Shown: positions 8,176 to 24,417 of the stretch, in pieces
How the letters are laid out: each line of letters starts with the position of its first letter
Position numbering within the stretch: the first letter of the stretch is position 1
NCBI GenBank assembly: GCA_963849325.1
Contig: CAWKHF010000001.1
Location: 448,001 to 512,000 of the forward strand
Direction of reading: 5' to 3'
DNA from: an uncultured Planctomycetota bacterium
GTDB taxonomy: Bacteria > Planctomycetota > Planctomycetia > Gemmatales > Gemmataceae
DNA length: 64,000 nt
Notes under the pieces: generated by a model
Database searches by the model: none
Seen by the model: only the letters and a program-made list of their open reading frames with translations
Told to the model about the DNA's origin: nothing
Translations under genes and position numbers: made by a program

Positions 8176-8450
8176 CGCTCGCGTTGCAAGCGGTGTATTT
8201 CACGCTCGTTAGAGCGTGCTCTGCGAGCAGGCTGAGGAATTGGAGGAACAGAGGAAGCAGAGGAAACAGTTCCTCATTCGTCAACTCCTGCCGGCGACAG
8301 ATGTTCGGCGACGCGAGCGGCTCGCGGGCCAAGCAAACAACGCATCTCCTCAATTGTCAAAGACCAGCGCCACGGAGACCGGGCGAACACGATTGCAGCA
8401 CCTTGGCGTTCGCGGCATCGATGCGAGAAGAACGGCGTGACCGACAGCGA
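8176..8450 (-). promoter_or_regulatory. CRISPR leader
   Basis: Non-repeat region between the last repeat and the cas6-like gene, at the 5' end of the array in handle orientation. Contains TCTTTGACAATTGA (minus strand, ~8349-8363) and the palindrome GCGAGCGGCTCGC (~8313-8325). Confidence 0.75.
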
Positions 8451-9431
8451 TCATTCGGTTGGGAGGAACAGGCCCAGACCGAAATGAGAGGCGTGGCCCA
8501 GACAAAGCGGCCCCGCCAACTCGCGGTCGAACTCCAGGCGGAACGCCGCCGTCGCTCGATTGGCCCCGTCGTCGCCCGGTTTGCGGCGGCCGCGACGGAA
8601 CTGAAGCGGCCGGAACGAACAGGTGCGGCCTACGTGATCCAAGACAGTATAGGCGGCCGATGCACCGGCCGCCAGGGTGGGTTGACGGCGGAGCCAGCGT
8701 TGGCTTTCTTCGGCAAGGACGCGGGCCGCGAAGTGCGGCCGGCCCGTGAGACCGTGACAGTCGGGCGGGTCTTTCTGACGGCCGCGTTTCTTGGGGCAGC
8801 GCGTGACGACAAACGGCGTGGCCGACTCCCAGACGCGGGCGGGACCAAACAGGCGACAGCGGAAATCCTCCGGCCGGCCCAGCCCCACCAGCAGCACCTG
8901 CAACGGGTCGCCCTCCCCCCAGGGCAGCCGCCGCACGGCTTGGAGGGCCGCCAGCTCGTCGGGGCCGAATCCCTCCGCGGCGTAGACGGTTACGTGATCG
9001 AGGCGGCTGGCGTCGTTCTCGGCCGTGGGCAGATAGTAGGCGTGGTCGTGGGAGTTCAGCGGCCGACCCGTTTCATCCTTTCCGGAAAACACCCGCGAGT
9101 AGAACTGCTGCGGATATCGCTTGGCGGCGTTTCCGTATCTGCGACGGTGCAGAAAGCGCTGAAAGCGATGCATGAGCACATGCCGAAACGCCTCGGCCAC
9201 TGGGAGGGTTTCGGTCACAAGTGGTAGCACCGGGCCGTCGAGCAGGAAGCGGGCGATCGTCATTAAGGCAGTGCCAGGTTTCTCGGTAACCACGACACGA
9301 AATGGGCGGTCATAGGGAACCGCTTCAAGTGTCGCGGAATCCAACGTCGGAACCACAATCGGTGTGATCCGATTGTCCGAGGCCTCTGTGTCAGGCCGCC
9401 GGCGACGCGAACCCCTTCTTGGCCTGCCCAT
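8451..9431 (-). CDS. csb2: Cas6-like crRNA processing RAMP, corresponding to the C-terminal half of type I-G Csb2
   Basis: Motifs FSGKD..GRPL..HDHAYYLP, LDHVTVYA..GF, WESATPFV and the terminal G-loop GPLCLGHASHFGLGLF. AAGGAG RBS before ATG 9431. ~326 aa, with no recognisable N-terminal Cas5 half. Confidence 0.85.
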   Translation of the reverse strand: MGRPRRGSRRRRPDTEASDNRITPIVVPTLDSATLEAVPYDRPFRVVVTEKPGTALMTIARFLLDGPVLPLVTETLPVAEAFRHVLMHRFQRFLHRRRYGNAAKRYPQQFYSRVFSGKDETGRPLNSHDHAYYLPTAENDASRLDHVTVYAAEGFGPDELAALQAVRRLPWGEGDPLQVLLVGLGRPEDFRCRLFGPARVWESATPFVVTRCPKKRGRQKDPPDCHGLTGRPHFAARVLAEESQRWLRRQPTLAAGASAAYTVLDHVGRTCSFRPLQFRRGRRKPGDDGANRATAAFRLEFDRELAGPLCLGHASHFGLGLFLPTE

Positions 9432-9433
9432 GC

Positions 9434-11766
9434 CTAGCTCCTTGTTCGTTTCCACCCTGTGCTGACATCATAAAGTTGAACGGCGAGGCTCATTGGGACA
9501 TGAACGATCTGTGATTCTTGCGACGCCTGGTCAATAGAGTAACCATATCGCTTGGGAACCTCAACGATCCGTTGCCCTAATTCAGGCTGCAGTTTCCGAA
9601 GCCGTCCCCGGCGCTGTCCAGGATCGGATAGCGCGTTCGCTTCCCGGAACTGCCGCCAAACGTCGGCGTCGGCAATGTCAACTTCGACGAAGTGCGCAAC
9701 CGCATCCTGACGTTCGTCGATGAGTCGAACCGCTTTGTCTTGGTCCTTTGCATCGATTCCTTCCCCACGGAGAGAGGCAAACTCCCACTGCTGAACCGCC
9801 TCCATGACCTTGTGAAAGGTGTCCGACCCGGTTCGGCTGGCGACGAGCCTGAAATATTCACCCACGCTCTCTTGGAGTCTTGGCTCGGGTACGGGCGTCC
9901 CTTGACCGGCAGCTCTTTCCAGAACCTCTCGCGGCACCCATCTCCTTGTTGCCATAGATCAGGTTGCCGGTATCTCCTTCCACTCTGACCAGGAAAACCT
10001 GGCCGCGGCGTCCCGTGCCGTGCCGGTTACACCGTCCGGCGGCCTGAACCACGGCGTCTAGGGGGGCCAGCGCTCGGAAAACCACGTCGAAGGACAGATC
10101 GACACCTGCCTCCACCACCTGAGTGGCGATGAGAAGATGCGGCCTACCGTGGCACTTTACGATCTGTTGTAAGATCTTCTTCCGGTCCAGCGGTCGCAAG
10201 TTTGTGGAAAGGTGAAAGACTGGATTATCGGAAACGCCGGGCAGCACCTTACCAAGGCGCATAGGTCGAGGGCTTCCTGGATGGTGTTCACGATGACAAG
10301 GCAAGACGGCTGCTTCGGGTCCGTTACCACATTGCGAATCCGATCAGCCAAGGCGACGAGGCTCACTGGCTGCCCCGTCTGCACATGGAGGTCGTAACGG
10401 TCGAATGCAACCGCCAGCGTTTCAGCCAAGGTCGGGCGCAGCTCGCTCACATCGGTTGCCTCGAAGATGGCCGGTTGGGTAGCCGTTACCAGCAGTACAT
10501 CGGTTCCCCATTGATCGCTCAGTGCTCGCAGCGCGGTGTTGATAAGCCGCCAGAACTTGGCGGGGATGGCTTGCACCTCGTCAAGGATTAAGATGGAACC
10601 AGCCAGGCGGGCAAATCGCCTCGTGTCGGCGACAGTTCCGTGGAACAGGGCGTTTACGACCTGGACGAACGTAGTGCAGATGATGTCGGCTCGCCATCCT
10701 TCGACCCAACTCCGAGCAAGCGACTGCTCGCCGCTCCGCGCCAGCTCGCCCGGCTCCGCGACGTGGTGGTGAACTGCCAGAGTGCTTTCGTCTGGCTCGT
10801 CATCTCCCCATATGCGGCGCAGCACAGACGCGTTCTGGTCGATGATGCTTGTAAACGGCAGCGCGTAGACGATCGGGCACGGGGGAAGGCCAGCGCCAAT
10901 GCGCGCCTCGCGACGCCGGAGCGCCCACCCCAGGGCCGCGAGGGTCTTCCCCGCCCCAGTGGGAACCGTCAAGCTCCATAGGTGGCCCGAGTCGAGCTGG
11001 TCGGAGGTTTGCCCGATCCACGGCGGCCTGATACACGTGTTCTCGTGCCTGAACGACACGCGGGTCGGCCGCTGGACCGAAGTTGGCGGCGGTTCGGAAC
11101 CGCTCCAAGTGGGCAATCGTGAATCGAAGGGGTGCTTTGAAGAGATCAGGTGCGAACCCTGTCGCGGAATCTCGATCTGCCTCAATCAACAGGCCGAACC
11201 AACGCAGCGCGTCCTGGAACCTCTTCATGGCGGCCAACCCGGATGGCCCTTGCCGAAAAGCGGTAGACGAGCTGCACCCGCAGCTTGGCCCATCGCAAGT
11301 CGAGGTCCGGCTTCTGGACCGGCTCGCCAAGACTTGCGGCAAGCCAGGTCGCCGCGCCTTCAAGATCCAGGGCTTGAAGTTGCTTCGCCCACAGGCCACG
11401 CGCCACATCGTCGGATGGGGGCAGTGATTCCAGCGCGTTCTTCAACCCCGTGTGGTGGTGCGCCACCATCAGATACGCCAAGACCGTTTGGTCTATGGTC
11501 AGGCCATGAGCGGCGACCTTGGGTAACAGGTGGTTAAGCAGCCAGACGGCCCCAAGGTGGGCGTGCTGCTTCAACCGGAGATCGCTGACAGGTTGACCCT
11601 TCAGGTAGTGCTGGAAGTGTTCTGTCCCTTTTGCCACGTCATGGAACAGGCCGGCGATCCGACCCAACCAGCCACAGGCGGTTAGCCGATTCGCCACGTC
11701 TTGAAGGTGGCCGGTCAGGGGCTTGCCTGGGTGCGATTCACAGAGCCGAAAAGCAGGTGCCATCAT
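9434..11766 (-). CDS. cas3: Cas3 HD nuclease-helicase (split by several apparent frameshifts)
   Basis: Across consecutive ORF pieces: N-terminal SHPGKPLTGHL..FHDVAK..HAHLG..HHTGL, Walker A VPTGAGKT, YALPFTSIIDQ, ILDEVQ, TATQP, ATQVVEAGVDLSF and QAAGRCNR. Confidence 0.93.
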
Positions 11767-12475
11767 CGCACCTCCAATACGTGCGCATGGTAGCCGTGAT
11801 CGAGCCGCCGGTCGTTTCAAGTAGGTACTCTTCGTACCGCTCCACCTGCCGCGTCGGCAGCATTTCGGCCGGCATGCGAATCCGCTGGTAGACGGCTTCC
11901 TCGTCCCAACGAATGTCCTGTAGATCCGCGGTGCGGATGGGCGATACAAAACGCTGATGCCCGGCCCCGTCGCGGACCTCCTCCGCCTGAACAGTTCGGA
12001 CCACATCCCCGAACCATGCGATCATCCATGCCAGACCGAGGCAAGGGGTGTAATTCGTCATGCCCCGGCGCAGGGTCGTCGCCAACCGCGAACCGAGTTC
12101 GGGATGGCTGAACCAAACCCGATACCGTGGCTCGCGGATGATCTCATACCGCATGATCGTATGCGGGTTCACCGACTTGGGCCGGAAGGTCTGGATGCCA
12201 AGCACGGTCGGCGTTCCCTTGGTGTCGAGAAGGTTGAGCGAAACGTGCCCGGTGCGCAGCGGCGCGAGCATCTGGAGGGCGAATATCGCCTGGGAATCCC
12301 GAAACTGCTCCAGGGAATCATTCTTCGGCAGCCCCAGCACCGCCCCGACGAGACCACAAAGCGCCGTTCGCGGCGGCGCCGGGAAGCTCAGCGCCGTCGT
12401 GATGGCGTACGGCCGCCGGAAGTGGGCCATGTCCGACAGCACATCGAAGACAATGAACTCGCGCGGCATGGTCAT
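11738..12475 (-). CDS. cas5: Cas5 (type I-B/Hmari-like)
   Basis: FDVLSDMAHFRRPYAITTALSFPAPPRTALCGLVGAVLG and YTPCLG; lies between cas7 and cas3. Confidence 0.93.
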   Translation of the reverse strand: MTMPREFIVFDVLSDMAHFRRPYAITTALSFPAPPRTALCGLVGAVLGLPKNDSLEQFRDSQAIFALQMLAPLRTGHVSLNLLDTKGTPTVLGIQTFRPKSVNPHTIMRYEIIREPRYRVWFSHPELGSRLATTLRRGMTNYTPCLGLAWMIAWFGDVVRTVQAEEVRDGAGHQRFVSPIRTADLQDIRWDEEAVYQRIRMPAEMLPTRQVERYEEYLLETTGGSITATMRTYWRCDDGTCFSAL

Positions 12476-13473
12476 TCCAGGTTTAGTGCTTCGGCCGGCA
12501 GGCCCAGGAAGATCCTGTCCGTCGGCTCCGAGGAAAAAGGCAAACGTTTGTCCCAGGCGTAGCGGACTCGTTCGATCCGCTCCTTCTTCCTGTCCAGGGC
12601 CGCCGCGAGTTCACCGAGTTGAAGCGCCACCTCGCGCACTTCGCGGATCTGCTCATCGCGGAGCGTCTGCCTACCTTCCTTCGCCGTTGCCGTGATGGTC
12701 AAGAACCGATCCAGCCGGCCGATGTACGCATTCGGTTCCTTGTATTCGATGACCAGCAGCAACAACGGACGCTGACCGATCTTGGATCGGCTGATGAGGT
12801 TTTTCGTCCCGTACCATATGCCTTTGTACAGTTCCTCGACATCCGCGTCCGTCAGTTTGGTCGTTGTCGCCGCTTGCTGGTTCACGATGCCGTAGAAGGC
12901 GATGAGGGCGTAGGGGAGGATGTACTCCTCGCGGAATGTCCTCTGCTGAGCGCCTTGACCTGACGCGAACGCACCGGTCCCCTTGATGAACCGTGGTTCG
13001 ACGCGGTGCAGGCTGGTACCCATTGCGAACTGAACCGGTCCTGTCAGCGTGACGCTGGAGTCTTTTTCATTTTTTTGGATTTTGGAAACCGGAATCGTGG
13101 CGCCGAAGAGCCGCACGTCGATGCACTCCTTGATGACGCCGGCCTGAATCAGGTCGCGCTTCTGTAAGACATTCGTGGCCTTTTCCCTGGCTTCCTTGGC
13201 GACCTTCTGGAAAAAGTCTTCCGCCCGGTCCTTCCCCTCTTGGATGGTGCCGTCCGGCTTCTCGATCTCCCGACAGAAGATCTCCTGCTTGCCGTAGTCA
13301 TGCAAGTAGTCGCGGATCGTGCGCTTCAGACGCACGTCGGACACTTTGGCCCGGCCGGTTTCCAGGTCCATGCGCGGCCGATTCTCGTCGTTGGGGTCGC
13401 CGTTGGGGTTGGCGTCCGTGATGTCGTAGACGAACAGAATCTCGCTGCGCCGGCTGACCGTCTCAGTCTTCAT
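12472..13473 (-). CDS. cas7: Cas7/Csh2 (type I-B)
   Basis: RSEILFVYDITDANPNGDP..NRPR, VSDVRLKRTIRDY, DVRLFG, SVTLTGPVQF, GTGAFAS and SRSKIGQRP. Confidence 0.95.
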   Translation of the reverse strand: MKTETVSRRSEILFVYDITDANPNGDPNDENRPRMDLETGRAKVSDVRLKRTIRDYLHDYGKQEIFCREIEKPDGTIQEGKDRAEDFFQKVAKEAREKATNVLQKRDLIQAGVIKECIDVRLFGATIPVSKIQKNEKDSSVTLTGPVQFAMGTSLHRVEPRFIKGTGAFASGQGAQQRTFREEYILPYALIAFYGIVNQQAATTTKLTDADVEELYKGIWYGTKNLISRSKIGQRPLLLLVIEYKEPNAYIGRLDRFLTITATAKEGRQTLRDEQIREVREVALQLGELAAALDRKKERIERVRYAWDKRLPFSSEPTDRIFLGLPAEALNLE

Positions 13474-15383
13474 GGATTCGTTTCCTCACTGGTTGCGGGT
13501 AAGGTTCCTTCGTCTTCCTGTTCCTTGGCGAGCCTAGATCGCAGGGCGTGCCCCAGGGCGAAGTAATAGGAGATGTCGTCCGGGCCCAATGTCCAGCGTT
13601 CCGCCGTCGCGGCCAAAGCGGAGGCAGCGCAGCTCAGCAATCCGCTGACGATGCGCTCCTTGTCGGGGCCATATGCCTTGGCTTTGTCCTTGGCGGCGAT
13701 GAACAATCGCTGAACGTCTGGTTGGTTCAAGCGGAAGCCCTTATACTTCCCCTCGAAGGGCGTCGATCCGCGCACCAGGCTCTGGATCGTCTCGATTCGT
13801 CCGCAGCACGCCCCGACCAGGAAGGCTGCCTGGGCAGCGGGGTCGGTACGAAGCCGGCTGGTTTCCGGCGCTTGCTGGAAGAAGTGGCGGACACGATCCG
13901 CCTGCTCGTTACCTCCGTAGTCCACTATCATAGTCGGCTGGCTCCTTTCGTTGTCTCCTCTTGTAAGTTCCTCAAAAAACAGAAGCGACCGGAAGAGATC
14001 GGCGAGCCTGAACGGCCAAGCCTTGCCCTCCAAGTAGTCTTCTTGAACCCAACGCATCCCGATCTCGACCATGCGGTCGGCGCGATGTGGTCGGATCTCC
14101 AAGGCTGGCGAGTGGCTGAAAGAAAGTCATCGTCGAAGGTGCTACCGCCGCGTGCCGCAGGATAGATGTTTCTGAAGCAGCCGAAGGTAAACCTCCCTTC
14201 GGTGAAGGTCTTTGGGCTCGGCGGTTGAAGCCAGGGATGACGATCAACCCGATCCTGCGCACGGAAGAGTTCCCGGAATCGGGACGGTAGTAAGCCGAAC
14301 ACGGTAGAGCGCTGGCCGGAACGACTGCGGGTCGGGTTGGTAAAAGAGCAGGTCGAGTTGTAGCCGGTTGTTCTCCTCCGCAATGATCTCGAACAGGTCG
14401 TCCTCCGCATCCGTGAGCCGTTTCGATGCCTTGCGATCCACACGAGCGCTGGCTAATCGGTTCAGGGATTGGTAGGTGTCGGTCGCTGCCAGCCGCACCG
14501 AGGCCGGCAACATCAGATACTTGAAGCCGTAGTAGTTGAAAGAGAGATCCCTTTTGATTCGTTCACCGGAGAAATCAACCTTGTCACAGCACTCGCGACA
14601 GGCGGGAAAGTTCCGCCAGGCGTCCAGCGCATCGAAACCTCCTGACACAGAGCCGGGTTTGTCCAGCGTGTAAACCTTGAACTGCTGGATTTGGAGCAGG
14701 CCAGATACCTCGGCATCCCGTCTGCCGCAGATACAGCACTGACCCACGCCCTTGACATCACCCCCTATGCCCTTCTTCTTTGATGCAGCTTCCGTCCCTT
14801 TGCGGACTAGCGCCTGCTGGAAGGCTTTGAAGTCACCAACCCATCGGGCCTCGCCTTCCGAAGGCCGCCAGGCCACCGAGAGGATCGCTGGTTTCGTCAG
14901 ATCGGGGTGGGCTTCCCGCAAGCGGATGAAGATGGCCGATCGAGGATCGCTGCCCGCTGACCCCTGTTTGTCCTTGGGAGACTGCAAACGGTCGCGCATG
15001 ACGGCAAGCGCCTCGCACTCGCATGTCGGTAGGTCTTCGCACTGCTCCAACGCTTCATTGATGCTGCGAGCAAGCCGGCTGAGTTTCTTGCCGATTTCCC
15101 CATCGGCCGTGTTCTCCTTGCCCTTCTTGACAGTCGCCATTCCGGTCGTCGGCGTCGCGTCCCACCCGTTCGGCGGTCCTGGTCGGTAGAGGCAGCGCAA
15201 ACGGCGACCCTCGTCGTATTCGTCCACCTGCACCCCCTCAAAGCCGTCGGATGAGAATACGAGCAGCAGGATTTCCTTGGTGCGAAATTTGGCCGACGGG
15301 TCGGCCGCATATTGGATCAGCTGGTCCTTGACCCCTTCTCGTTCGAGGTAGAACTGGCCGAGTTCGGCGAATTGATGTATCAC
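13470..15383 (-). CDS. cas8b: Cas8b/Csh1 (TM1802-like) large subunit, frameshifted near 14290 and 14100
   Basis: C.ICG Zn motif, FKVYTLDKPG..SGGF..AWRNFPAC.EC and C-terminal AAFLVG..Q...PF...YYFALG; lies immediately upstream of cas7. Confidence 0.88.
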
Positions 15384-15544
15384 CGGGTAGACCCTCTTGA
15401 TAGCCCGCGATTGTCGAGTCAGCCGCCACCCGCTTTACGGTCACCACGTCCTTGGCACTCACCTCCGTCGGTTGGCTGAGTTCTCACTTGGTCCATGCGC
15501 TTCGCGCACGAACGAACGATCTACAGCCGATCCTCGGTGAGGTG

Positions 15545-15550
15545 TATAAT
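15545..15550 (+). promoter_or_regulatory. Putative sigma70 -10 box for mini-array 1 / vapBC
   Basis: Perfect TATAAT 48 bp upstream of the mini-array in otherwise GC-rich DNA; no clear -35. Confidence 0.45.
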
Positions 15551-15598
15551 GTCCTACAGCCGGGCCCGCGAGCATACAAGGGCGGTAGCAGAAATCGC

Positions 15599-15710
15599 CT
15601 TCTCCACGGTCTTCGGGCCGTGGCCGCTTTGAAGCAGGCGTCTGCCAGTGGGACAGTTGACCGACCATAGTGAGTTCTCCACGGCCTTCGGGCCGTGGCC
15701 GCATTGACAG
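15599..15710 (+). CRISPR. Mini-array 1 (2 repeats, one 38-nt spacer), opposite orientation to the main array
   Basis: CTTCTCCACGGTCTTCGGGCCGTGGCCGCTTTGAAGC (15599-15635), spacer 15636-15673, GTTCTCCACGGCCTTCGGGCCGTGGCCGCATTGACAG (15674-15710). Confidence 0.93.
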
Positions 15711-15779
15711 GTGCTGCCGACCATCGCCCCTTTCTCTCCCGTACCGTCCGCCCGGTCAGGAGATTGCCGGAGACTGTCC

Positions 15780-16007
15780 ATGACCACCGTTTCCCTTTCG
15801 GAAGCTCAAGCCCATCTGCCGGAACTGTTGGAAAAAGTCGCGGCCGGTCAGGAGGTCGTCATCACGCGCGATGATACGCCGCTCGCCTTGATAACGCCCA
15901 TTTGCACGGCCAATCCGCAACCGCGGTTCGGCAGCTGCAAAGGAATGCTCTCCATCGTGAGTGATGATGAGGAACACCTGGAGCACTTCAAGGAGTACAT
16001 GCCTTGA
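15780..16007 (+). CDS. Phd/YefM-family antitoxin
   Basis: MTTVSLSEAQAHLPELLEKVAAGQEVVITR..P.A; overlaps the PIN toxin start. Confidence 0.88.
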   Translation: MTTVSLSEAQAHLPELLEKVAAGQEVVITRDDTPLALITPICTANPQPRFGSCKGMLSIVSDDEEHLEHFKEYMP

Positions 16008-16390
16008 GGCTCCTGCTCGATACGCACACGTTCCTCTGGTTTACGCTCGGCGACACCCAGTTGAGCCCCACAGCGCTGGCCCTCATCAATGATCCGGGGA
16101 ATGACAAGCTTATCAGCCCAGCCAGCTACTGGGAGATAGCCATCAAGGTCAGCATCAGGAAACTGGCCCTGAACCAGCCCTTCGAGGACTTCCTCGATCG
16201 CGGAATCCGGCAGAACGGCTTCAAAATTTTGCACATCGACCTGCGACACACGGCACGCGTGGTCACGTTGCCGTTCCACCACAAGGATCCGTTCGACCGT
16301 CTGCTCATCGCCCAAGCGTTGACCGAGGGCATCGCCATCGTGGGGGCTGACACGCTCTTCGATCAGTACGGCGCGACGCGGTTGTGGTAG
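16004..16390 (+). CDS. vapC: VapC PIN-domain toxin
   Basis: LLLDTHTFLW, SPASYWEIAIK and HHKDPFDRLLIAQA. Confidence 0.93.
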   Translation: MRLLLDTHTFLWFTLGDTQLSPTALALINDPGNDKLISPASYWEIAIKVSIRKLALNQPFEDFLDRGIRQNGFKILHIDLRHTARVVTLPFHHKDPFDRLLIAQALTEGIAIVGADTLFDQYGATRLW

Positions 16391-16408
16391 GGCAGATGTC
16401 GGGCCGTC

Positions 16409-16693
16409 TTACACCACCACAACCACATCCTTCGCATCGGCCGCCTCCGTCGGCCGGCCGAGCGCCTCGATCGCGTTCACGCACTTCGCGCACAGCGGGA
16501 TGAACAGCACCTGATCCTGCTCCAAGTTGATGAGATCATACAGCCGCGACCGCAAACGTACAAAGTCGGTAGCGGACAAGCGACACAAAAACACCGAATA
16601 TTGCTTGCGGTAGCCGAAGTCCTCGCACACCGTCGCCACCTTGCGCAGACGTTTCGGATCGCTGATGTCGTAGGCGACGAGGTAGCTATCCAA
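16409..16693 (-). CDS. cas2: Cas2
   Basis: [25 protein letters not shown], 94 aa. Confidence 0.96.
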
Positions 16694-16699
16694 GGATTA

Positions 16700-16734
16700 C
16701 CCCTCACCCTACCCTCTCCCCAAGGGGCGAGGGA
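16700..16734. repeat. REP-like palindrome (CCCTCACCCTACCCTCTCCC...GGGGCGAGGG)
   Basis: Intergenic hairpin between cas1 and cas2; a related hairpin lies at ~46319-46349. Confidence 0.55.
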
Positions 16735-16742
16735 CGATCGGC

Positions 16743-18462
16743 TCACCGCACCGTGAAGCCCGTGTACGCCGGCACCGAGCCGCGCACGTACGCGGCCAGC
16801 ATCCGCGCCTGCACCTCCAGCATCCGCGAATAGCTCATCTTGTAGCCGTACACCGGGTGCGTCACCACCGTCGCCTTCCGCTGCTCGTAGGCCTGGAAGA
16901 ACTTCCGCCGGCCCGAGTCCGTCAGCTGACACGCCTCGCGCCACACCAGGAAATCGTCCGGCGTCAGCATCTCGTTGTTGATCAGCGTCAGCACCACCGA
17001 GTCGGCGATCACCGGGCGGAACTCCTCCATCAGGTCCAGCGCCAGCGACGGCTTGCCGTGGCGGTTGGAGTGGAAGAAGCCCTTGTACGGGTCGAATCCC
17101 ACCGTGCAGACCGCCGCGAAGCAGTCCTTCGTCAGCATCGCGTAGGCGAACGACAAGCAGCGCGTTCACCGGGTCGCGCGGCGGGCGGCGGTTGCGCGTC
17201 GTGAACTCGAAGCCGCGGCCCGGCGGCTGCACCTGCAGGAAGCGGCCGAACTCGCCGAAGTACAGCGCCGCTCCCTGCCCCTCCAGCCCCAACACCGTCT
17301 CCAGCGGACGCGGCACTGTCCAACCGCCGGATCAGGTCCGCCAGACCCCGCGCGGCCGGCTCGTCGCTGCCGCGGTCGCCGTCGCCGCGCAGGCTGCGCA
17401 TCAGCAGCGCCCGCTGGTTGGTGAGCTTGGCCCGCACCACCGCCTTCGACAGCGTCAGGCACTCCGCGGCGTCGGCGAAGCGGCGGAACTGCGCCTCGCG
17501 CAGCCCGACGTTCTTGCGCTCGGCCGGCGCGAACGTGCCGATGAACCGGCCGTAGCCCGTCAGGTAGGCCACCGGGATCTCGTTCGTCACCAGCGTCTCC
17601 AGCGCCTGCGTCGAAACCTGCACGTTGCCGAAGACCACCACCTGCCGGATCGCGTGCATCGGCACCCGCGTCACCTCCTGGCCGTCCTTGCGGACGACCA
17701 GATGCTCGCTGCGCTTGCCGACGTGGCTGCCCGGCTCCTGCACGTACAGCACCGCGCCGTCGTCGGACTGCGGGATCACCCGCGTCAGGCCGGGCGGCGG
17801 CGAGGCCGTTTCCTCGGCGGCCGGCGGCAGGCCGATCTGGTAGAGCGTCTCCTCCGGCAGACAGACCGGGGCCAGCGAGCAGCCGAAACAGCGGTGCCGC
17901 AGCTCCGCCGGCAGCGGGTCCGGCGGGGCGTCCAGGGCAGACAGCCGCCGGCATTCGTCGATGGCCGTGCGCGTCTTCGCCCGCAGCTCGTCGCGTGAAG
18001 CGGACCTCGACGCGCTCGCGCGTGCCGGCGTAGAACTGGAAGCCGCGCTGCACCGGCGCGCCGAACGCTTCTTCCATCAGCAGCGCCTGGCCGCACAGCT
18101 GCACGGCGTCGTTGTCCCAGGTCGTCGGCCGGCCGTCGTCGTCGCGCGGGGCGGAGCCGTGCTTGGTCTCCACCGGGTAGGACACGCCGTCCTTCTCCTC
18201 GATCACGTCGAGGACGCCGCTGATGCCGAGCGTCTCCGACGACAGGTGGACGCCGCGACTGCGGTTTGCATCGCCTTCCTTGCGCGTCTTGTTGGCCAGT
18301 TCCGGCTCATCGACGCGGCGGTGATCGAACAGGCCGGCCTCGACGTGTTCGTTGGTGCGGCATCACGGCATCGACGTACTGGAGGTAGTAGAGGCGCGGG
18401 CAGTAGGTGACCTGGTTCAGTGCGCGCAGGGGGATCATCTGGGCGTCGGTCGTTGCGGTCAT
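16743..18462 (-). CDS. cas1: Cas4-Cas1 fusion (type I-G-like), frameshifted in this sequence
   Basis: Cas4 part: [30 protein letters not shown] and a C-terminal Cys cluster. Cas1 part: [48 protein letters not shown] and LEVQAR. Confidence 0.93.
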
Positions 18463-18490
18463 GATTCACCTCAGAGAGTCCGAGTAAGGG

Positions 18491-20407
18491 TTAATCCACC
18501 ATCCGCAGCTTGCAAGGCGCCGGATCCATAGCCACCAGGAGCGGCCGAGAAAGGTGCGTGAAACTGACCACCGCCTGACCCGGCGCCAGTCCCGGGATGC
18601 GGCTCCACAGCGACTCGTCGATGCCGCTGATGGTATGTCGCAGGTTCATTAACACCTGCGGGTCGGTCAGCTTGTGCAGCACAAAGTTGTTGCACAGCGA
18701 CAAAACCTGACGGGGCAAGTGCGCGGGTAACTGTGTCACGAACACCAGCCCGAGCCAGCGCTTCCGGCCGCGCTTGGCGATGCGGGCCACTTGCTGGAAC
18801 AGCGTGTCCATCCGCTCGATGCGATCCGCACTGAGGAACTCGTGCGCTTCCTCAATGATGAGCAGGACGCGAGGAACCGGCGGGTCCTGCCCCGCGGCCT
18901 TCGCCTTCTCGTAGCGGCGGTAGGCATTTTCTTGGGCTTTCTGAACGCCGCGCATCAGATCGGCGATCGCAAAATTCGCCAGTTCCGTCATGCCGGTGTC
19001 CGAAAGGTCCACCACGGAAACCTGACCCGGTGCGATGAGCTGGTCGTAGTTCAGCGGCGGAGCGCCGCGTTTTTGCAAATGGCGATCAAACACTTTCAAG
19101 CGATTCAGCCGCCAGAGCAGGCTCTTGACCTTGCCCCACGAGGACGCACTGCTCAGTTCCTTTGCCTTGATGTGTTTCTCCAACGCCGCGCGGCCGGCGT
19201 CGGTACGGAGCACGGCGTTGTATGGCTCGAAGCTCGTTTTGCTCACCGTCGCCAGACACTTGCCGACCACGTCGAGCAGCAGCGACAGCGTCAGGCGGGG
19301 CCAGCCGCGCTCGAACTCGTCGATGCGGAGCAGCAGCTGTTCCTGCTTGTCCACTTCTTCCTTCGGCTTGTCCCGTTGTGGGAAAATGCCGAGGTCGCGC
19401 ATTATCGCCTTGGTGATTTCGTAGGCCGGAAGAAACCGCTCAGATTGAGCATCGTTCATCCCCAGCATTTCGATAACCGCGTGCGGAGAAAGCGCGGCAA
19501 ACTGGAGCGAGAACTCGCTGCGGTTTGGATGGCGCGGGTTCGTGGACTCACGACCGACAAGGTGGTACAGCCGCATGGAGTCCGCGGGGATGCCGGCTGG
19601 CGACAGGCCACGCTCCTGCAAGGCGTCCAGCATCGTGCGGTGATCGGCCGGTTCGTGCAAGTGCGTGTATTCGCCCTCGACATCCAGCAGAATGACGGTC
19701 ATCCCCACGGCCTGAGCTTGCTGGATCAAGCCCGCCACCGTCGTCGATTTGCCGCCGCCCGTTGTACCGAGGACCGCGACGTGGCGCGGCAGCACGGCCT
19801 TCTTGTCGGACGGTACGTTGACGATCACCTCGCTCGCCCCAACCACGGAACCCAGCCGGATGTCGCCATCGGTGTGCAGGACTGCGGCTACCTCCGATTG
19901 CGTCAGGGCAACGACGGGGCTATTGGGCAGCGGTCGCAGGCGCGGCGGAACCAGCGAGCCGTTCTTGAGTTCCTCGCCCAGAATCGAGACCGTCGCGCGG
20001 CCGTGGTAGGGCGGCAGATAGACGCCGCCGCGCGCCGTCACGGTGACGAGCAAATGCGAGTCGGCCCGTAGCGTGTCCGGTTCAGCAAAGGGACCGGCGG
20101 TCACGATGCCCAGGTACTTGCGCCCGTCGCAGCTCTTGATGCGCACCAGGGATTGCGACGGCGCCTGTTGGGCGTGATCGCGCGGCAGCAGGACCGTCAC
20201 GCTGCCGTCTTCGCTGCCGGGCAGGTCGAACATGGTCGCGCCGATGGCGCCTTCCCGATCCGGGTCGGGAGCCAACTCGCCGCCGGCACGGGTTACGTCG
20301 GCTTGGACCTGCTGGAGCAGATCCTCCGGCGGACGGGCGATGCCCAGGTCTTCCTGGCCGTTGTCGTGTGCCGTCCTAGGCGTTGGTCGCGTTGTGGGTG
20401 CAGGCAT
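18491..20407 (-). CDS. herA: HerA/FtsK-family ATPase (DUF87)
   Basis: N-terminal HAS-barrel-like region, HVAVLGTTGGGKS, ILLDVEGEY, LLIIEEAHEF and RIAKRGRKRWLGLVFVTQLP. Confidence 0.9.
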   Translation of the reverse strand: MPAPTTRPTPRTAHDNGQEDLGIARPPEDLLQQVQADVTRAGGELAPDPDREGAIGATMFDLPGSEDGSVTVLLPRDHAQQAPSQSLVRIKSCDGRKYLGIVTAGPFAEPDTLRADSHLLVTVTARGGVYLPPYHGRATVSILGEELKNGSLVPPRLRPLPNSPVVALTQSEVAAVLHTDGDIRLGSVVGASEVIVNVPSDKKAVLPRHVAVLGTTGGGKSTTVAGLIQQAQAVGMTVILLDVEGEYTHLHEPADHRTMLDALQERGLSPAGIPADSMRLYHLVGRESTNPRHPNRSEFSLQFAALSPHAVIEMLGMNDAQSERFLPAYEITKAIMRDLGIFPQRDKPKEEVDKQEQLLLRIDEFERGWPRLTLSLLLDVVGKCLATVSKTSFEPYNAVLRTDAGRAALEKHIKAKELSSASSWGKVKSLLWRLNRLKVFDRHLQKRGAPPLNYDQLIAPGQVSVVDLSDTGMTELANFAIADLMRGVQKAQENAYRRYEKAKAAGQDPPVPRVLLIIEEAHEFLSADRIERMDTLFQQVARIAKRGRKRWLGLVFVTQLPAHLPRQVLSLCNNFVLHKLTDPQVLMNLRHTISGIDESLWSRIPGLAPGQAVVSFTHLSRPLLVAMDPAPCKLRMVD

Positions 20408-20423
20408 AGCTGTTCTCCTCTCC

Positions 20424-21698
20424 TCAATCGTGACGAGTCGTGCGTTCGCTGAAGTAGCGCCAGGGCGCACCGGCCGCAGCGTAGGCCGTTTCGGTCAGGT
20501 GGTGCAGACTGCCGCCGAACACCGAATCGCAAACGTGATGGGCCAAGTCGATCAGCAGCGGGAAGCCGCGCTCTTCTTGGAACATGCTGTCGGCCAGCAC
20601 GATATGGGCGGCGAAGTGAGCGTGGTCCACATGGGCGTAGAAGAGCTGCGCTGGAGCCAGGATCGAGGCGCGGTACAGGCCAACCACCACTTGCGACGCG
20701 ACACGCTCGATGAAGCGTGGTATCCATTCCGGCGGGGACAGCCGCTCGCCGTCCCAGAATAAGTCCCCGGAGGATTCCATCGTGAATCGGCGTTGTTGGA
20801 ACCAGCCTTCCAGACGCGGAGCCAAGTTGCCGAGGATGGCGTAATGCAGCGGAGGCAGCGCCTGGCCAATGGTCAGCGCCAGCAGTTCACGGGGCTCACT
20901 GGCCACGAAGACGAATTTGCCGTAACCCTCGATCAGTTCGCGCATCATCCCGGTCGCGGCGACCATCAATTCCAGGATGTCGGCGCCAGTCAGCAATTCG
21001 TAAGTGATCGGATTGCCGTGGCCCATCCGCCAAACCGCCCTCGATTGGCGGAGGAGAATGGCCCGTTCGGCGTAATCCATGACAGCCTTCCTCGCCAATT
21101 CGCCGAGTTGGTCGCTCGGCGTTCCGTGGTTGAGGGCGGCTCGTTGGTCGCGGCGTCGGAGCAGCTCTAATACCTCATTAAGGTCCGCGGGGCCGCGTTG
21201 CCGCAGGTCGCGGCGGAAGAGTCGCTGCTGCCATGTGCCTTGATCGCCAGCGTAGGATACCAGCGAAACGCCGACCTGGTAGATCGTCAGAGGCAGCGTA
21301 GCATGTACCTGAACCGTCCCGTCACACGCTTCCACACCGCCGTTAAATAACAGGCCGCGATGAATGAGGGCGAGAATGTCCATGTTCGCGGTGAAGACGC
21401 CGCAGCCCGGTGCCGAAGCTGGGTCGATAAGCTTTGGGAAAACTTCGCTGCGAATGCACCGTTGGTACTCGTCCTCCTGGGCGATGGCCTCACGCACTTC
21501 GCGCTCGATACGCGGATACTCCTGCGCCAGGTCTCCTCCCAGCCGCCATGTGTTCACATCGAGAACCCGTTGCAACTCCTCACCGAAGCTCGCTCGAAAC
21601 TCGGCGGCGGTTGCCGGTTCCGAAGGCAGGCGCGTCGGCGACCGTGCCGCGGCCGACACGGGGGATGCTGCATCGTCTCGGGATGTGGTGGTTGCCAT
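20424..21698 (-). CDS. nurA: NurA-like (RNase H fold) nuclease
   Basis: VEACDGT resembles the NurA AVDGS motif and GFPLLIDLAH resembles GYP..L..AH; directly upstream of herA. Confidence 0.72.
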   Translation of the reverse strand: MATTTSRDDAASPVSAAARSPTRLPSEPATAAEFRASFGEELQRVLDVNTWRLGGDLAQEYPRIEREVREAIAQEDEYQRCIRSEVFPKLIDPASAPGCGVFTANMDILALIHRGLLFNGGVEACDGTVQVHATLPLTIYQVGVSLVSYAGDQGTWQQRLFRRDLRQRGPADLNEVLELLRRRDQRAALNHGTPSDQLGELARKAVMDYAERAILLRQSRAVWRMGHGNPITYELLTGADILELMVAATGMMRELIEGYGKFVFVASEPRELLALTIGQALPPLHYAILGNLAPRLEGWFQQRRFTMESSGDLFWDGERLSPPEWIPRFIERVASQVVVGLYRASILAPAQLFYAHVDHAHFAAHIVLADSMFQEERGFPLLIDLAHHVCDSVFGGSLHHLTETAYAAAGAPWRYFSERTTRHD

Positions 21699-21780
21699 CG
21701 TTCGTTCTCCCACGCGCTTTGCCGGCACCCTCGCGCCTGACTATACTCTCCTGGATTAAAGTGGTCGCGCCCGTCCCTTG

Positions 21781-21807
21781 TCCGTGGCCCAGTTCTTTGA
21801 CAATTGA
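21781..21807 (+). promoter_or_regulatory. Leader-derived motif upstream of mini-array 2
   Basis: TCCGTGGCCCAGTTCTTTGACAATTGA matches the main leader (minus strand TCCGTGGCGCTGGTCTTTGACAATTGA) at 24/27 positions. Confidence 0.75.
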
Positions 21808-21834
21808 ACCGCATCGCCTTGCCACCTCGACGAG

Positions 21835-21946
21835 GTTCTCCACGTTCTTATGAACGTGGCCGCATTGAAGATCCCTCACTACTTCCCGACATGCGCGACA
21901 AAGTTCGACATTCTCCACGGTCTCATGGCTGTGGCCGCATTGAAGT
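21835..21946 (+). CRISPR. Mini-array 2 (2 diverged repeats, one 38-nt spacer)
   Basis: GTTCTCCACGTTCTTATGAACGTGGCCGCATTGAAGA (21835-21871), spacer 21872-21909, ATTCTCCACGGTCTCATGGCTGTGGCCGCATTGAAGT (21910-21946). Confidence 0.88.
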
Positions 21947-21984
21947 GTAAGCAATCCCGCAAGCTCGCCGTGGCAAGCCAACGC

Positions 21985-22719
21985 TCAGGAGCGCAGTCGC
22001 TGGAGCAACGGATCTTCCCGGACGGGCGGTAAGAGGAGACGGCTATAGTCCTTAGCCTGCTCCTGCGGCAGACCGAAATCGGCTTGCAACACTTCCGCAA
22101 GTCGGATTCTTCCTTCCACACCCGAAATCGACCCGGCTCGCGCCCATACGTCGGCGGCAGGCGCCAGCAGTTCGTAGGCGACCTGATCGGCTTCCTCTTC
22201 GGCCAGCGTGATGGTCGCGTGAAGCACTTCCCGGCGCGGGCCACGCCGCATCAAATGCAGATGAAAACCGAGGGAAATGCTTTTCAAGAGCGCATGAAGA
22301 CACTCCTCTGGCGTCGGCGGGCGCTCCCCGTCCAGGACTTCCACGATTCGTTTCCCCAAGTAGCGGCACGCCCGCCGCCGAGGATGCCAGTAATGTCGCA
22401 GAAAATGAGCCAACTCGTGTGCCAGTGAGAAACGCTGGTCGTCATCGCTGTCGGTTCCGTCGAGAAAGATCAGTCCATGACCGAAATGGGCCGCCAGGCA
22501 AGCCCGCAACGGACGATCCGCTTCGTCGCAACGACAGGCGATCCCGTTCCGGCACAACCAGTCACGGACACTATCAAGCCGTAAATGCGGCAGCAAGACG
22601 ATGGATACCGGCAGCGCCCGGACTATGGGCCGGCGTAATTCACGAGGGAAGGATTCGTCCAAGCCCGCAGCCGCCCAGAACTCACGGATCAATTCCGCGA
22701 TCCACAGCGGCACTCTCAT
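21985..22719 (-). CDS. ImmA/IrrE-family Zn metallopeptidase
   Basis: QRFSLAHELAHF (HExxH) followed by EEEADQVAYELLAP. Confidence 0.85.
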   Translation of the reverse strand: MRVPLWIAELIREFWAAAGLDESFPRELRRPIVRALPVSIVLLPHLRLDSVRDWLCRNGIACRCDEADRPLRACLAAHFGHGLIFLDGTDSDDDQRFSLAHELAHFLRHYWHPRRRACRYLGKRIVEVLDGERPPTPEECLHALLKSISLGFHLHLMRRGPRREVLHATITLAEEEADQVAYELLAPAADVWARAGSISGVEGRIRLAEVLQADFGLPQEQAKDYSRLLLPPVREDPLLQRLRS

Positions 22720-23099
22720 GACTTCGCTCCTTGCGGCGGAGTGTCTTCCGTCGTATTGTCTCGCGCCGCTAACAGGAATCCTTTCTCGCTGTTTTGGCCG
22801 CCGGCGCCAATCCGAAGCCGCAACAGGCTGTGACCCCGCCTGGCAACCTCGGCCAAGACCTCAGCATCGAGCGAGAAGCGCTGCGCGATCTTTTCGACAT
22901 CTTGCCAGAACAGAGGGGCCTGCGCTCGGGGCATCCGGCACAGGCGCAGATGGGTGAGGATTCCCTCGGAACAACCGAGCCGGATGGCCAATCCGGCATC
23001 CTCAAGCTGTTCGCTTCGGGCATACTCCGCCAGCGCGCTGGCGAAAAAATCGGGAGCATCGGCGACACGCAGGGCCAGGTGTTCCAGGTACGGATTCAT
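22716..23099 (-). CDS. Small hypothetical protein (possible HTH / anti-sigma / peptidase substrate)
   Basis: 127 aa, ATGA overlaps with both neighbours; contains LAIRLGCSEGILTHLRLCRMP and LLAARD. Confidence 0.7.
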   Translation of the reverse strand: MNPYLEHLALRVADAPDFFASALAEYARSEQLEDAGLAIRLGCSEGILTHLRLCRMPRAQAPLFWQDVEKIAQRFSLDAEVLAEVARRGHSLLRLRIGAGGQNSEKGFLLAARDNTTEDTPPQGAKS

Positions 23100-23731
23100 G
23101 CTTTTCTCCCGGCTCGCTCCAGCATCTTCTTTAACCGATCCTTGTTTCGCTTCACCTGCCGGAATTGCTCTTTCGCAGGCAGGTGCAACAAACCGTAGAG
23201 TTCGGCGAAGATTTTGGTCCGGCGTTCCTTCCGCAAAATCAAATCCAGCGCGCGGGAGTCGGTTTCGGACAAACCTTGGCAGACGGAATTTGAGATGGAG
23301 TTCATCGCGCTCTCGTCTTCCTCAGCCACTCGCATCGGGAGTGACGGATCGTCATGGCGTCCCAGATACTTCCCGGCCTCCTGCGAAAGTTCGACACTTT
23401 TCCACGAAACCCGGCCTTTGTTGTGTCTCCGTTCTTTATCGAGAAGGTTGCGCAAGTCTCCGCGGGCTGACATGCGCAGGTACACTTCCAGGGTCTGCCG
23501 TTCCGGAGAGTACGACCGCGGATTACGAATCAAAGCCAGCAGGGCATCCTCCGCAGCCTCGATGCGGACATCCGGAGGCACGCTCGCGTCGGTTTTGGCC
23601 AACCAGGCGACGAGCGGTTCCAGGTAGGCGTCAGCCAGATCATTCGGGGCAGTTGGATCATCAGCCAGGAGGCGCTGATGAATTTCAAGCGCGTTCGGTT
23701 GCCTGGGTGTTAAGGCGGTAGGACGGGCCAT
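23096..23731 (-). CDS. Divergent ECF/sigma70-like RNA polymerase sigma factor
   Basis: Region 2-like EAAEDALLALIRNPRSYSPERQTLEVYLRMSARGDLRNLLDKERR and a C-terminal region 4-like HTH (FAELYGL..VKRNKDRLKKML). Confidence 0.7.
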   Translation of the reverse strand: MARPTALTPRQPNALEIHQRLLADDPTAPNDLADAYLEPLVAWLAKTDASVPPDVRIEAAEDALLALIRNPRSYSPERQTLEVYLRMSARGDLRNLLDKERRHNKGRVSWKSVELSQEAGKYLGRHDDPSLPMRVAEEDESAMNSISNSVCQGLSETDSRALDLILRKERRTKIFAELYGLLHLPAKEQFRQVKRNKDRLKKMLERAGRKA

Positions 23732-23929
23732 GTTCTACAGTCCTGCGGATCGGTGTCGGGGCAGTGCTCAAGCAGCTTGGTCACCTGCCGGAACTTGGGC
23801 AGTATAAATCAAGTCACAGCTTAACGCGCAGGACCGGCGTATCAAGCACAAGTGGCTGAATTATCCCTACGTTGGCGCGACCTTATCGACCGAGCAAACC
23901 TATCACCAATCGCTGGACAATCGGCATCC

Positions 23930-24170
23930 GTGACCGCACCTTGGGCTCCAGGCCGGAAAGGCGGGGCGATGGAGCGGGGCTTCTCCGGGATGGTGAGCGA
24001 CACCAGGTCCAGTTGGCCCAGCCGGTCCAACTTGAGGAAGGAGCGAATCAACGGAAGCTTCAAATCATCCAGCTCGGCGTGATGGTTGATCCGGTCGTCG
24101 AACGGCACCGTGGCGGTCAGGGCCATCAGCTCGCGCGGCTCGCCGTTCCGCGCGTCGAGACTGTCCACAT
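23930..24170 (-). pseudogene. Internally deleted remnant of an AlbA/Schlafen ATP-binding (RecG-C-like) regulator
   Basis: ATVPFDDRI...LDDLKLPLIRSFL is fused directly to a C-terminal-type LVSLTIPEKPRS motif; family assignment is from memory of motifs. Confidence 0.45.
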
Positions 24171-24417
24171 CAACCCTGGCCTGACAGTGACGAAGGCCGT
24201 ACTGGAAGCCCTCGGCATTGTGGCTCCGCCGGAGAAAACCGCCCCGGCGGCGATCCGCCTTTCTCGCCGCGCTTGTCCATCACAACGCATAAACAACCGC
24301 TTATCACGGAATCCGCACGGAATGGGTGGAAACCACGGTATTTCATGGAATTCCGGCTTTTCTACCAACATTATCCGTAACTTTAACTCGATATACAGTA
24401 ACAACTTAAATCAATCA

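Follow-up and report, generated by a model that had tools for sequence, protein, structure and literature searches.

A hybrid I-B/I-G CRISPR-Cas locus of a Gemmataceae bacterium, with a NurA-HerA and adaptation operon that may be under a dedicated sigma switch

Subtypes I-B and I-G of CRISPR-Cas (short palindromic repeats, clustered and regularly interspaced, with their associated proteins), nurA-herA pairs linked to CRISPR loci, capH/capP regulators accompanied by a sigma factor, and CreR mini-arrays are each already known. Here, we describe a locus in which counterparts of all of them occur together, in DNA of an uncultured Gemmataceae bacterium, called as a soil planctomycete. The window, i.e. 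the whole 64-kb stretch of DNA that was analysed, corresponds to positions 448001-512000 of contig C1 in an 8.16-Mb assembly (G000; 14 contigs, 84.7% complete). It encodes I-B-like effector genes, I-G-like processing and adaptation genes and, upstream of the latter, a cassette of five genes (a sigma-like factor, a protein of 127 amino acids (aa), an M78 peptidase, a NurA-like nuclease and a HerA ATPase). We consider it a working hybrid locus, in which an end-resection and adaptation operon would stand under a dedicated sigma switch, and assign to this reading a probability of roughly 0.6.

The type I-G systems of Thioalkalivibrio sulfidiphilus and Geobacter share with the window a Cas4-Cas1 fusion, cas2, a hairpin repeat, an 8-nucleotide (nt) handle of the ATTGAAGC type and a Cas6 derived from Csb2. 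The published TTN protospacer-adjacent motif (PAM) also fits the TTC found beside a self-match of the window, and the T. sulfidiphilus locus likewise carries toxin-antitoxin genes and an extra nuclease between its effector and adaptation genes (PMC9638904). However, the window, like a locus in genome G593, has cas8b-cas7b-cas5b-cas3b in place of cas3g, cas8g, cas7g and the Cas5 half of Csb2. Type I-B systems, in turn, resemble the window in cas8b (TM1802 family), cas7 (Csh2), cas5b and a Cas3 with an N-terminal HD domain, all in the same order, but the window is without cas6b and without separate cas4 and cas1b genes, its processing and adaptation genes being of I-G descent.

A CRISPR-linked nurA-herA pair was noted in Pyrobaculum (PMC3396285), and ‘NurA + DUF87’ is listed among candidate CRISPR auxiliary genes, in a catalogue whose available text gives no mechanism for it (PMC10910872). 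In Thermoproteales, as here, nurA and herA remain neighbours of CRISPR loci, and the pair has been proposed to act in adaptation (PMC3396285; PMC10910872); unlike the window, these loci are archaeal, have csm6 between the two genes and, in the available descriptions, come without a sigma/peptidase module. As for the regulators, a sigma factor was reported beside capH/capP in 24 cyclic-oligonucleotide-based anti-phage signalling systems (bioRxiv 10.1101/2022.04.27.489752). The window resembles the DNA-damage-responsive regulators CapH-CapP (and DdrO-IrrE or ImmR-ImmA) in having an M78 peptidase by a small helix-turn-helix (HTH)-like protein, together with a sigma-70-family factor, upstream of an immune operon. 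It differs in that this operon consists of nurA-herA and CRISPR adaptation genes, and in that the 127-aa protein is predicted to bind region 2 of the sigma factor, instead of or besides DNA. Finally, mini-arrays of relatives of the window resemble CreR in their two degenerate repeats and in a spacer partly complementary to a cas promoter by a PAM, whereas one mini-array of the window encloses the putatively regulated promoter itself and some mini-arrays of relatives adjoin the adaptation operon. The main text of a 2023 mini-array survey gives 0 occurrences for subtype I-G (bioRxiv 10.1101/2023.03.03.530964). In the literature searched, we found no paper on this I-B/I-G chimera, nor on a sigma-controlled nurA-herA-cas4/1 operon.

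Genes of the window were called from a listing of open reading frames (ORFs) and from family scans (Pfam, NCBIfam/TIGRFAM profiles and PADLOC models; 20 ORFs scanned). The chimeric I-B/I-G character put forward in a preliminary description of the locus is borne out: I-B-like effector genes are combined with a cas4/1 and a Cas6-like gene that are I-G-like, and the same hybrid exists in a second genus. On the I-B side, cas7b reaches 287.8 bits with TIGR02590 (cut-off 171.55) and cas5b 98.2 bits with TIGR02592 (cut-off 97). The pieces of the split cas8b stay under the curated cut-off (72.2 and 31.1 bits versus 156.95) and over that of Pfam PF09484 (140.4 and 64.5 bits versus 25.1); the intact 633-aa orthologue of G593 matches PADLOC Cas8b at 2.8e-71. 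The intact 781-aa Cas3 orthologue of G593 likewise scores 521.9 bits with PADLOC Cas3b, and the HD domain of the window Cas3 is N-terminal, whereas that of cas3g is C-terminal. On the I-G side, the Cas6-like gene covers only profile positions 229-491 of Csb2 (TIGR02165, 69.3 bits, cut-off 45) and matches PADLOC Cas56g at 1.1e-55. Full-length Csb2 is absent from the window and no cas6b was matched among the 20 ORFs, this C-terminal half of Csb2 being the only Cas6-like gene; used as tblastn queries, cas3g, cas8g2 and cas7g of a relative (locus L001) had no match in the window either. The cas4g/cas1g pieces match NF049935 at 7e-17, 2.7e-44 and 7.1e-66, and their L001 orthologue, with 88% DNA identity, scores 681.6 bits against a cut-off of 560; the fusion is intact in L001-L003 (570-585 aa).

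Genuine I-G effector genes (cas3g, cas8g2, cas7g and Csb2) follow cas2 in L001, L003, L055, L062 and L098. In G593, which belongs to another genus, an intact cas4/1g-cas2-cas8b-cas7b-cas5b-cas3b series is followed by the Csb2 C-terminal half and then by the array. Cas7b is 74% identical between the window and G593, and the Csb2 half measures 334-346 aa in the two. Judged by this gene content, the I-B/I-G hybrid is stable, with a Cas6 domain split off from Csb2. The isolated C-terminal domain of Csb2 binds and cleaves the I-G repeat in vitro (PMC9638904). Since this domain alone can process the repeat, the chimera makes functional sense: Cas5b would replace the Cas5 half of Csb2, and the Cas6 half would be kept for the I-G-type repeat. 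Just past the hybrid array of G593 (L097, 112-6141), genes for type I restriction-modification and a fragment related to Argonaute or SIR2 mark this region as a defence island.

The array of the window is part of a series of 252 repeats (C1:435192-456175). Its 37-nt repeat ends in ATTGAAGC on the minus strand, and the array is therefore transcribed with the cas genes. Variation among the repeats is confined to the length and sequence of the hairpin loop (36 or 37 nt, rarely 34, 35 or 38) and comes in blocks: repeats of 37 nt occupy the part close to the leader and return at the far end, with the 36-nt forms between; in the window, canonical repeats stand at the leader end and 36-nt loop variants from 6873 downwards. 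The series is interrupted by 1,996 bp at C1:444163-446158, outside the window, and has seven gaps of 106-182 nt where a repeat degenerated. When 240 spacers of 25-50 nt were blasted against their own genome and the loci of relatives, one real self-match emerged, between window positions 1523-1557 and C6:235120-235154 (34/35), with its single mismatch at position 18 and TTC directly 5' of the match; this is the only PAM data point for the source genome. The C6 site could be a self-target, or else belong to a mobile element that is integrated or was co-binned.

Linkage of the five-gene cassette to adaptation genes recurs in the family. The NurA-like gene occurs in 85 of the family's 251 other genomes and, by genus, in 41 of 90 (the genus of the window counted), and was not found in 400 genomes sampled from the rest of the phylum (E ≤ 1e-10). 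By tblastn, we compared 43 loci, namely the three closest, from Gemmataceae or ‘Planctomycetaceae’ metagenome-assembled genomes, and 40 picked from the 85 genomes for long contigs and wide spread. In 22 loci, cas4g/cas1g-cas2 shares the strand of herA and lies downstream of it (immediately in 21, with the effector genes intervening in L082); in eight, cas4g/cas1g is divergent from the sigma gene; six have no cas gene within approximately 12-19 kb of the cassette; two are too short to tell; and five hold distant NurA-like genes (28-31% identical) without the full cassette or any cas gene. Thus, the cassette adjoins cas4g/cas1g in 30 of 36 informative loci, and recurrent linkage of the sigma/small-protein/ImmA and NurA/HerA genes to cas4g/cas1g-cas2, on which the preliminary description had made its proposal depend, is what the family displays. 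The gap between herA and cas4/1 is approximately 20-40 nt in the window, L001, L045, L046 and L057. Five of the six lone-cassette genomes were searched, and all five have cas4g/cas1g elsewhere. In two complete genomes (G459:C1 and G458:C1), the cassette is 44-50 kb from the nearest cas4g/cas1g on the same chromosome; the two are unlinked as an operon and have the promoter motif described below in common.

This motif, which is the strongest support for one regulon that would cover nurA-herA, cas4/1-cas2 and the small-protein and peptidase genes, was derived from aligned ImmA-nurA spacers and is bipartite: GTCGAAC(TT), approximately 16 nt, (C)GGGAAC. As a regular expression, it has 69 sites in 1.80 Mb of loci with both strands counted, a few of them counted twice because stretches L097 and L098 overlap L054 and L049. 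The genome of the window holds 34 sites in 16.3 Mb versus 45 in a reversed-genome null, and there is therefore no general enrichment in it. As a position weight matrix with a threshold of 14 bits or more, the motif has 89 sites, including 32 inside the sigma gene (sense strand, approximately 265 nt upstream of the 127-aa gene), 22 upstream of nurA, eight upstream of cas4/1 and 19 elsewhere. In the divergent loci, it stands upstream of sigma, pointing at cas4/1, in eight out of eight (one of these sites is tallied above as upstream of cas4/1, the others as elsewhere). Distant cas4g/cas1g copies of lone-cassette genomes have a perfect sense motif 72-329 nt upstream in all four cases fetched. Wherever cas4/1 stands apart from the herA operon, it thus has the motif upstream; no such motif precedes the effector operons. 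Its presence before both nurA and stand-alone cas4/1 fits a private sigma regulon for resection and adaptation. The copy inside the sigma gene of the window lies in a poorly conserved linker and encodes conserved residues V-E-L ... G-K/N, as is also true of the 32 sites inside sigma across loci; a promoter at this place could serve the genes of the small protein and the peptidase, or yield a sigma4-only product.

As to the proteins that would form the switch, the sigma factor announced in the preliminary description is upheld by its two-domain sigma2-sigma4 fold, but not by a Pfam region 2 or region 4 match above the gathering score. Its model (predicted local distance difference test, pLDDT, 83.7) retrieves sigma factors at all of the Foldseek PDB ranks 1-50 shown, and region 2 of SigmaE (5or5) aligns to it over 94 columns (TMt 0.81, root-mean-square deviation 2.3). 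Sigma70_r2 is matched by 14 of 31 family members at E ≤ 0.01, and the family profile retrieves extracytoplasmic function (ECF) sigma factors first in the PDB (E = 0.041). The peptidase scores 34.2 bits with PF06114 (cut-off 22), has HELAH (HEXXH) in its translation and matches PADLOC capP at 8.9e-07. Encoded between them, the 127-aa protein carries a weak HTH signal (HTH_31 in 4 of 29 members, and one Xre-like match at 1.1e-04) and a conserved C-terminal LLAARD motif; its sequence search against the PDB gave nothing meaningful. The predicted complex of this protein with the sigma factor obtains an interface score (ipSAE) of 0.88, versus 0.01 for the best of three controls. Solved complexes attain this mark in 116 of 157 cases, and mismatched pairs in 2 of 215; these counts hold only roughly because our own alignments were used. 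At least 79% of contacts are common to the runs, the partner has a pLDDT of at least 77, and the predicted interface falls on sigma residues 24-41 and 57-69, i.e. on region 2. The model supports binding of the two proteins, and the 127-aa protein looks more like an anti-sigma factor than like a plain repressor. No conserved operator or palindrome was seen upstream of sigma.

Directly downstream of the nurA-like gene, herA is identified by PF01935 (DUF87; 67.4 bits versus 23.2) and PF05872 (42.8 versus 22), and also matches the anti-phage HerA models NF042943 (8.3e-26) and PADLOC HerA (9.5e-30). The NurA label, for its part, is carried by fold and by the herA neighbour, but not by a sequence-family match: the window protein, which belongs to a family with more than 1,630 relatives, matches nothing in Pfam, NCBIfam or PADLOC, and a profile search of the PDB with its family gave no sequence match to NurA. 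By Foldseek, its AlphaFold model (pLDDT 73.7) retrieves NurA, HerA-NurA or TdpAB chains at all of PDB ranks 1-11 (E 3.7e-07 to 6.4e-05, TM 0.29-0.49), with PIWI and EndoV below, and in the nearest ESM Atlas clusters 21-64% of members carry the NurA label, a lead only. The NurA assignment thus rests on the predicted fold, and a role of the pair in adaptation is conjectural.

The five-gene cassette could also be read as a self-contained anti-phage system, i.e. a HerA-scaffolded NurA nuclease under a sigma/anti-sigma/protease switch that would share defence islands with I-G and have no role in adaptation. Such a system would account for the anti-phage models matched by HerA, for TdpAB, a defence HerA/NurA-like pair, among the fold matches, and for the 6 of 36 informative loci that are not beside cas genes; capH/capP, sometimes with a sigma factor, are reported to regulate many defence operons (bioRxiv 10.1101/2022.04.27.489752). 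It is nevertheless an unlikely explanation, given that the same motif precedes cas4g/cas1g in 8/8 divergent loci and in 4/4 distant copies (approximately 44-50 kb off or on other contigs), that only 20-40 nt separate herA from cas4/1 in many loci, and that the searched lone-cassette genomes still hold cas4g/cas1g (5/5).

Besides the promoter motif, the locus has two mini-arrays. Both read in CRISPR RNA (crRNA) sense on the plus strand and thus run antisense to both the cas genes and the main array; of the elements listed in the preliminary description, the genes other than vapBC do lie on the minus strand, but the mini-arrays do not. The spacer of mini-array 2 (21872-21909), read as its reverse complement, holds the whole nurA promoter motif together with the sequence that serves as ribosome-binding site in relatives, the distance from promoter to nurA start being approximately 170 nt in the window versus approximately 25 nt in relatives. 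Its two repeats flank this promoter and show compensatory stem changes, the bases at its PAM position are AGA, the end of the repeat, and a sigma-70-like promoter at 21719-21747 (plus strand) points into it. In the target scans listed below for mini-array 1, this spacer gave only a gapped 30/38 likeness to 23359-23395, which is the second copy of the motif. The layout could reflect Cascade repression of nurA, antisense transcription or a by-product of off-site integration.

For mini-array 1, TGTATAAT at 15543-15550 lies upstream and is promoter-like by eye; a scan of 15350-15800 found no sigma-70-type promoter. Its spacer had no target in locus, whole-genome, intergenic and ±2.5-kb seed scans or in a gapped scan of 8100-24500, the best seed match (12/14 at 23626) being about chance by our estimate. 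The adjoining vapBC insert (vapC PF01850 52.1 bits versus 23.6, vapB PF02604 35 versus 29.8) is found again after cas2 in L003, of the same genus. There, at 13105-14586, part of cas2 (residues 35-94) is present a second time after vapBC, and the covariance model described below found no repeat-like sequence in the locus. Mini-array 1 with vapBC was considered as an analogue of CreTA and rejected, as there is no spacer match upstream of vapBC and the vapBC of L003 comes without a repeat-like match.

A covariance model of the repeat was used to find mini-arrays or single repeats in relatives. Antisense copies lie between cas2 and the first effector gene in L001, L045, L055, L065, L071, L073, L078 and L082, and between herA and cas4/1 in L061, L065, L066 and possibly L079. 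Spacer matches were scored over 20 positions (1-23 minus 6, 12 and 18). The spacer of L001 matches at 19/20, with a TTC PAM, in the cas3g promoter region, and that of L082 at 17/20, with a TTC PAM, approximately 50 nt upstream of cas3g; those of L078 and L065 match at 18/20 nearby, with GGA beside the match. L045 and L066 reach 16/20 and three others 15/20, the latter being near chance by a hand-calculated estimate of approximately 0.4 matches per search at 15/20 and 0.005 at 17/20 (p = 0.3 per base, 10,000 positions). Positions 6, 12 and 18 are where mismatches between spacer and promoter concentrate, in line with what a type I Cascade would lead one to expect and with what has been described for CreR (bioRxiv 10.1101/2023.03.10.532045; 10.1101/2023.03.03.530964). 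The mini-array of L066 (7886-8144, between herA and cas4/1) has four antisense repeats; two of its spacers are near-identical over at least the first 31 nt, and a third has matches that lie 77-130 nt upstream of the promoter motif of cas4/1.

The suggestion that crRNA-like RNAs regulate the locus is thus sustained by the CreR-like matches of relatives, but not by a target for mini-array 1 of the window. It is quite conceivable, although we lean the other way, that both mini-arrays of the window are non-regulatory by-products of off-site spacer integration or recombination and that only those of relatives are CreR-like. Indeed, neither window spacer reaches 15/20 within ±2.5 kb, and genome-wide neither finds a convincing match; that of mini-array 2 is no more than the local promoter, with AGA in the PAM position, and mini-array 1 accompanies the vapBC insert. 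Against this, promoter-like sites stand before both mini-arrays on the plus strand, the hairpins are conserved, and at least 11 relatives have antisense mini-arrays or single repeats at equivalent positions.

The state of the assembly has a bearing on whether the locus works at all. Ten frame changes affect three cas genes, leaving cas4/cas1 in five pieces, cas8b in three and cas3 in five. In cas4/cas1, comparison with three intact orthologues locates four single-base insertions near 18357, 17994, 17307 and 17156, and the pieces have 83-96% amino-acid identity to the intact orthologues of L001 and L003; cas8b has two compensating frame changes near 14303 and 14123, and cas3 four frame shifts. 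The same assembly breaks rpoB into four or more pieces and rpoC into three or more (C1:334967-343005, outside the window). Being essential, these two genes cannot be pseudogenes; single-base indel errors thus seem to occur throughout the genome, pseudogene calls in it need checking at the level of reads, and, because rpoB and rpoC are broken too, the ten frameshifts of cas genes are most likely assembly errors. Of sequencing runs, only two, both of soil-metagenome DNA, contain a fraction (0.05-0.06) of the sampled words, and no RNA run is listed. On these grounds, a decaying CRISPR-Cas remnant, with cas4/1, cas8b and cas3 as pseudogenes and the mini-arrays as debris, appears highly improbable, even though the ten frame changes, the mini-array 1 without a target found and the one self-matching spacer could be taken as its signs: the broken rpoB and rpoC belong to the same 84.7%-complete assembly, all four breaks in the well-conserved cas4/1 are single-base insertions, the 252-repeat array is uniform near the leader, and the hairpins of mini-array 2 are preserved by compensatory changes.

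Several observations weigh against our reading of a working, sigma-switched locus. As assembled, cas4/1, cas8b and cas3 are frameshifted, and the 34/35 self-match with a TTC PAM is awkward for an active system. In 6 of 36 informative loci, the cassette is away from cas genes. None of 24 NurA-like family members matches Pfam PF09376 at E ≤ 0.01. The sigma protein of the window scores 17.4 bits with Sigma70_r2 (Pfam cut-off 24) and has no region 4 match, its Foldseek E-values are weak (1.6e-03 or above), and the motif was not found upstream of the sigma gene itself; this sigma factor is the most likely reader of the motif, which we infer from co-occurrence alone. Likewise, because of its weak HTH matches, the 127-aa protein could be a DNA-binding repressor like CapH, and the complex prediction could reflect remembered solved sigma/anti-sigma pairs. 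Finally, the similarity of the peptidase to capP covers only approximately 40 residues, and its sequence search against the PDB gave nothing meaningful.

The gene order of the preliminary description, from the sigma factor to the array, was recovered in full, every named element being present (table 1).

Table 1. Features of the locus, in window coordinates, from the sigma-like gene to the array.
Feature	Position	Strand	Basis
Sigma-like gene, divergent ECF-like, 211 aa	23096-23731	minus	sub-threshold Pfam match and fold
Copy of the promoter motif in the sigma gene, ~270 nt upstream of the 127-aa gene	23369-23395	minus	
127-aa ORF, weak HTH signal, conserved C-terminal LLAARD	22716-23099	minus	
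M78/ImmA-IrrE metallopeptidase, CapP-like	21985-22719	minus	PF06114
Mini-array 2, two diverged repeats around the nurA promoter	21835-21946	plus	
Conserved sigma-type promoter motif upstream of nurA	21882-21909	minus	
NurA-fold nuclease gene, 434-aa ORF, likely true start ATG at 21698	20424-21728	minus	fold
herA, FtsK/HerA-type ATPase	18491-20470	minus	DUF87
cas4g/cas1g fusion, frame-broken	16743-18462	minus	NF049935
cas2	16409-16693	minus	PF09827, 81.1 bits
vapB (Phd/YefM-type antitoxin) and vapC (PIN toxin)	15780-16390	plus	PF02604, PF01850
Mini-array 1, with a 38-nt spacer (15636-15673) between two diverged repeats	15599-15710	plus	
cas8b, frame-broken	13470-15383	minus	
cas7b (Csh2)	12472-13473	minus	TIGR02590
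cas5b	11738-12475	minus	TIGR02592
cas3 (Cas3b-like), N-terminal HD domain, five frame pieces	9434-11775	minus	
Stand-alone Csb2 C-terminal (Cas6-like) domain, 334 aa	8451-9455	minus	TIGR02165
Leader, from the Cas6-like gene to the first repeat	8176-8450	minus	position only
CRISPR array, part in the window, 112 repeats	14-8175	minus	

The overall idea of a damage-inducible system in which a private sigma factor switches on resection and adaptation is partly supported, and the locus may be pictured as follows. An I-B-type Cascade with Cas3 would use I-G-type repeats processed by the stand-alone Cas6 domain derived from Csb2, while cas4g/cas1g-cas2 would form the tail of an operon that starts with the NurA-fold nuclease and the HerA ATPase. 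A dedicated promoter (GTCGAAC-~16 nt-GGGAAC) would drive this operon, as well as the separate cas4/1 units of relatives, and its most likely reader would be the ECF-like sigma factor, whose gene lies just upstream. In the fashion of an anti-sigma factor, the 127-aa protein probably keeps this factor inactive, and the ImmA/IrrE-type peptidase probably cleaves the small protein on a signal which, by analogy with CapP and IrrE, might be single-stranded DNA arising from damage or infection. Cleavage would free the sigma factor and turn on end resection and spacer capture together, with NurA-HerA providing the prespacer substrate in the form of resected DNA ends or fragments. Regulation of the interference genes would be separate, through crRNA-like RNAs of the CreR type from antisense mini-arrays.

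More speculatively, and with the odds in our view somewhat against it, a switch of this kind (a sigma factor, an anti-sigma-like protein and a peptidase sensing single-stranded DNA) might license spacer capture only when broken or resected DNA is present, while the ‘spacer’ that is the nurA promoter would feed the state of interference back onto the adaptation operon, either through Cascade loaded with the RNA of mini-array 2 or through antisense transcription across the nurA promoter.

The locus documents a stable combination of I-B and I-G parts, whose I-B Cascade would be served by a Cas6 domain split off from Csb2, and mini-arrays of the CreR type are extended to the I-G lineage. More broadly, the widespread arrangement described here, which puts the genes of a resection machine and of an integrase under a common dedicated promoter and beside a candidate signal-sensing switch, touches on the questions of when bacteria acquire spacers and of where prespacer DNA would come from when RecBCD or AddAB may not serve.

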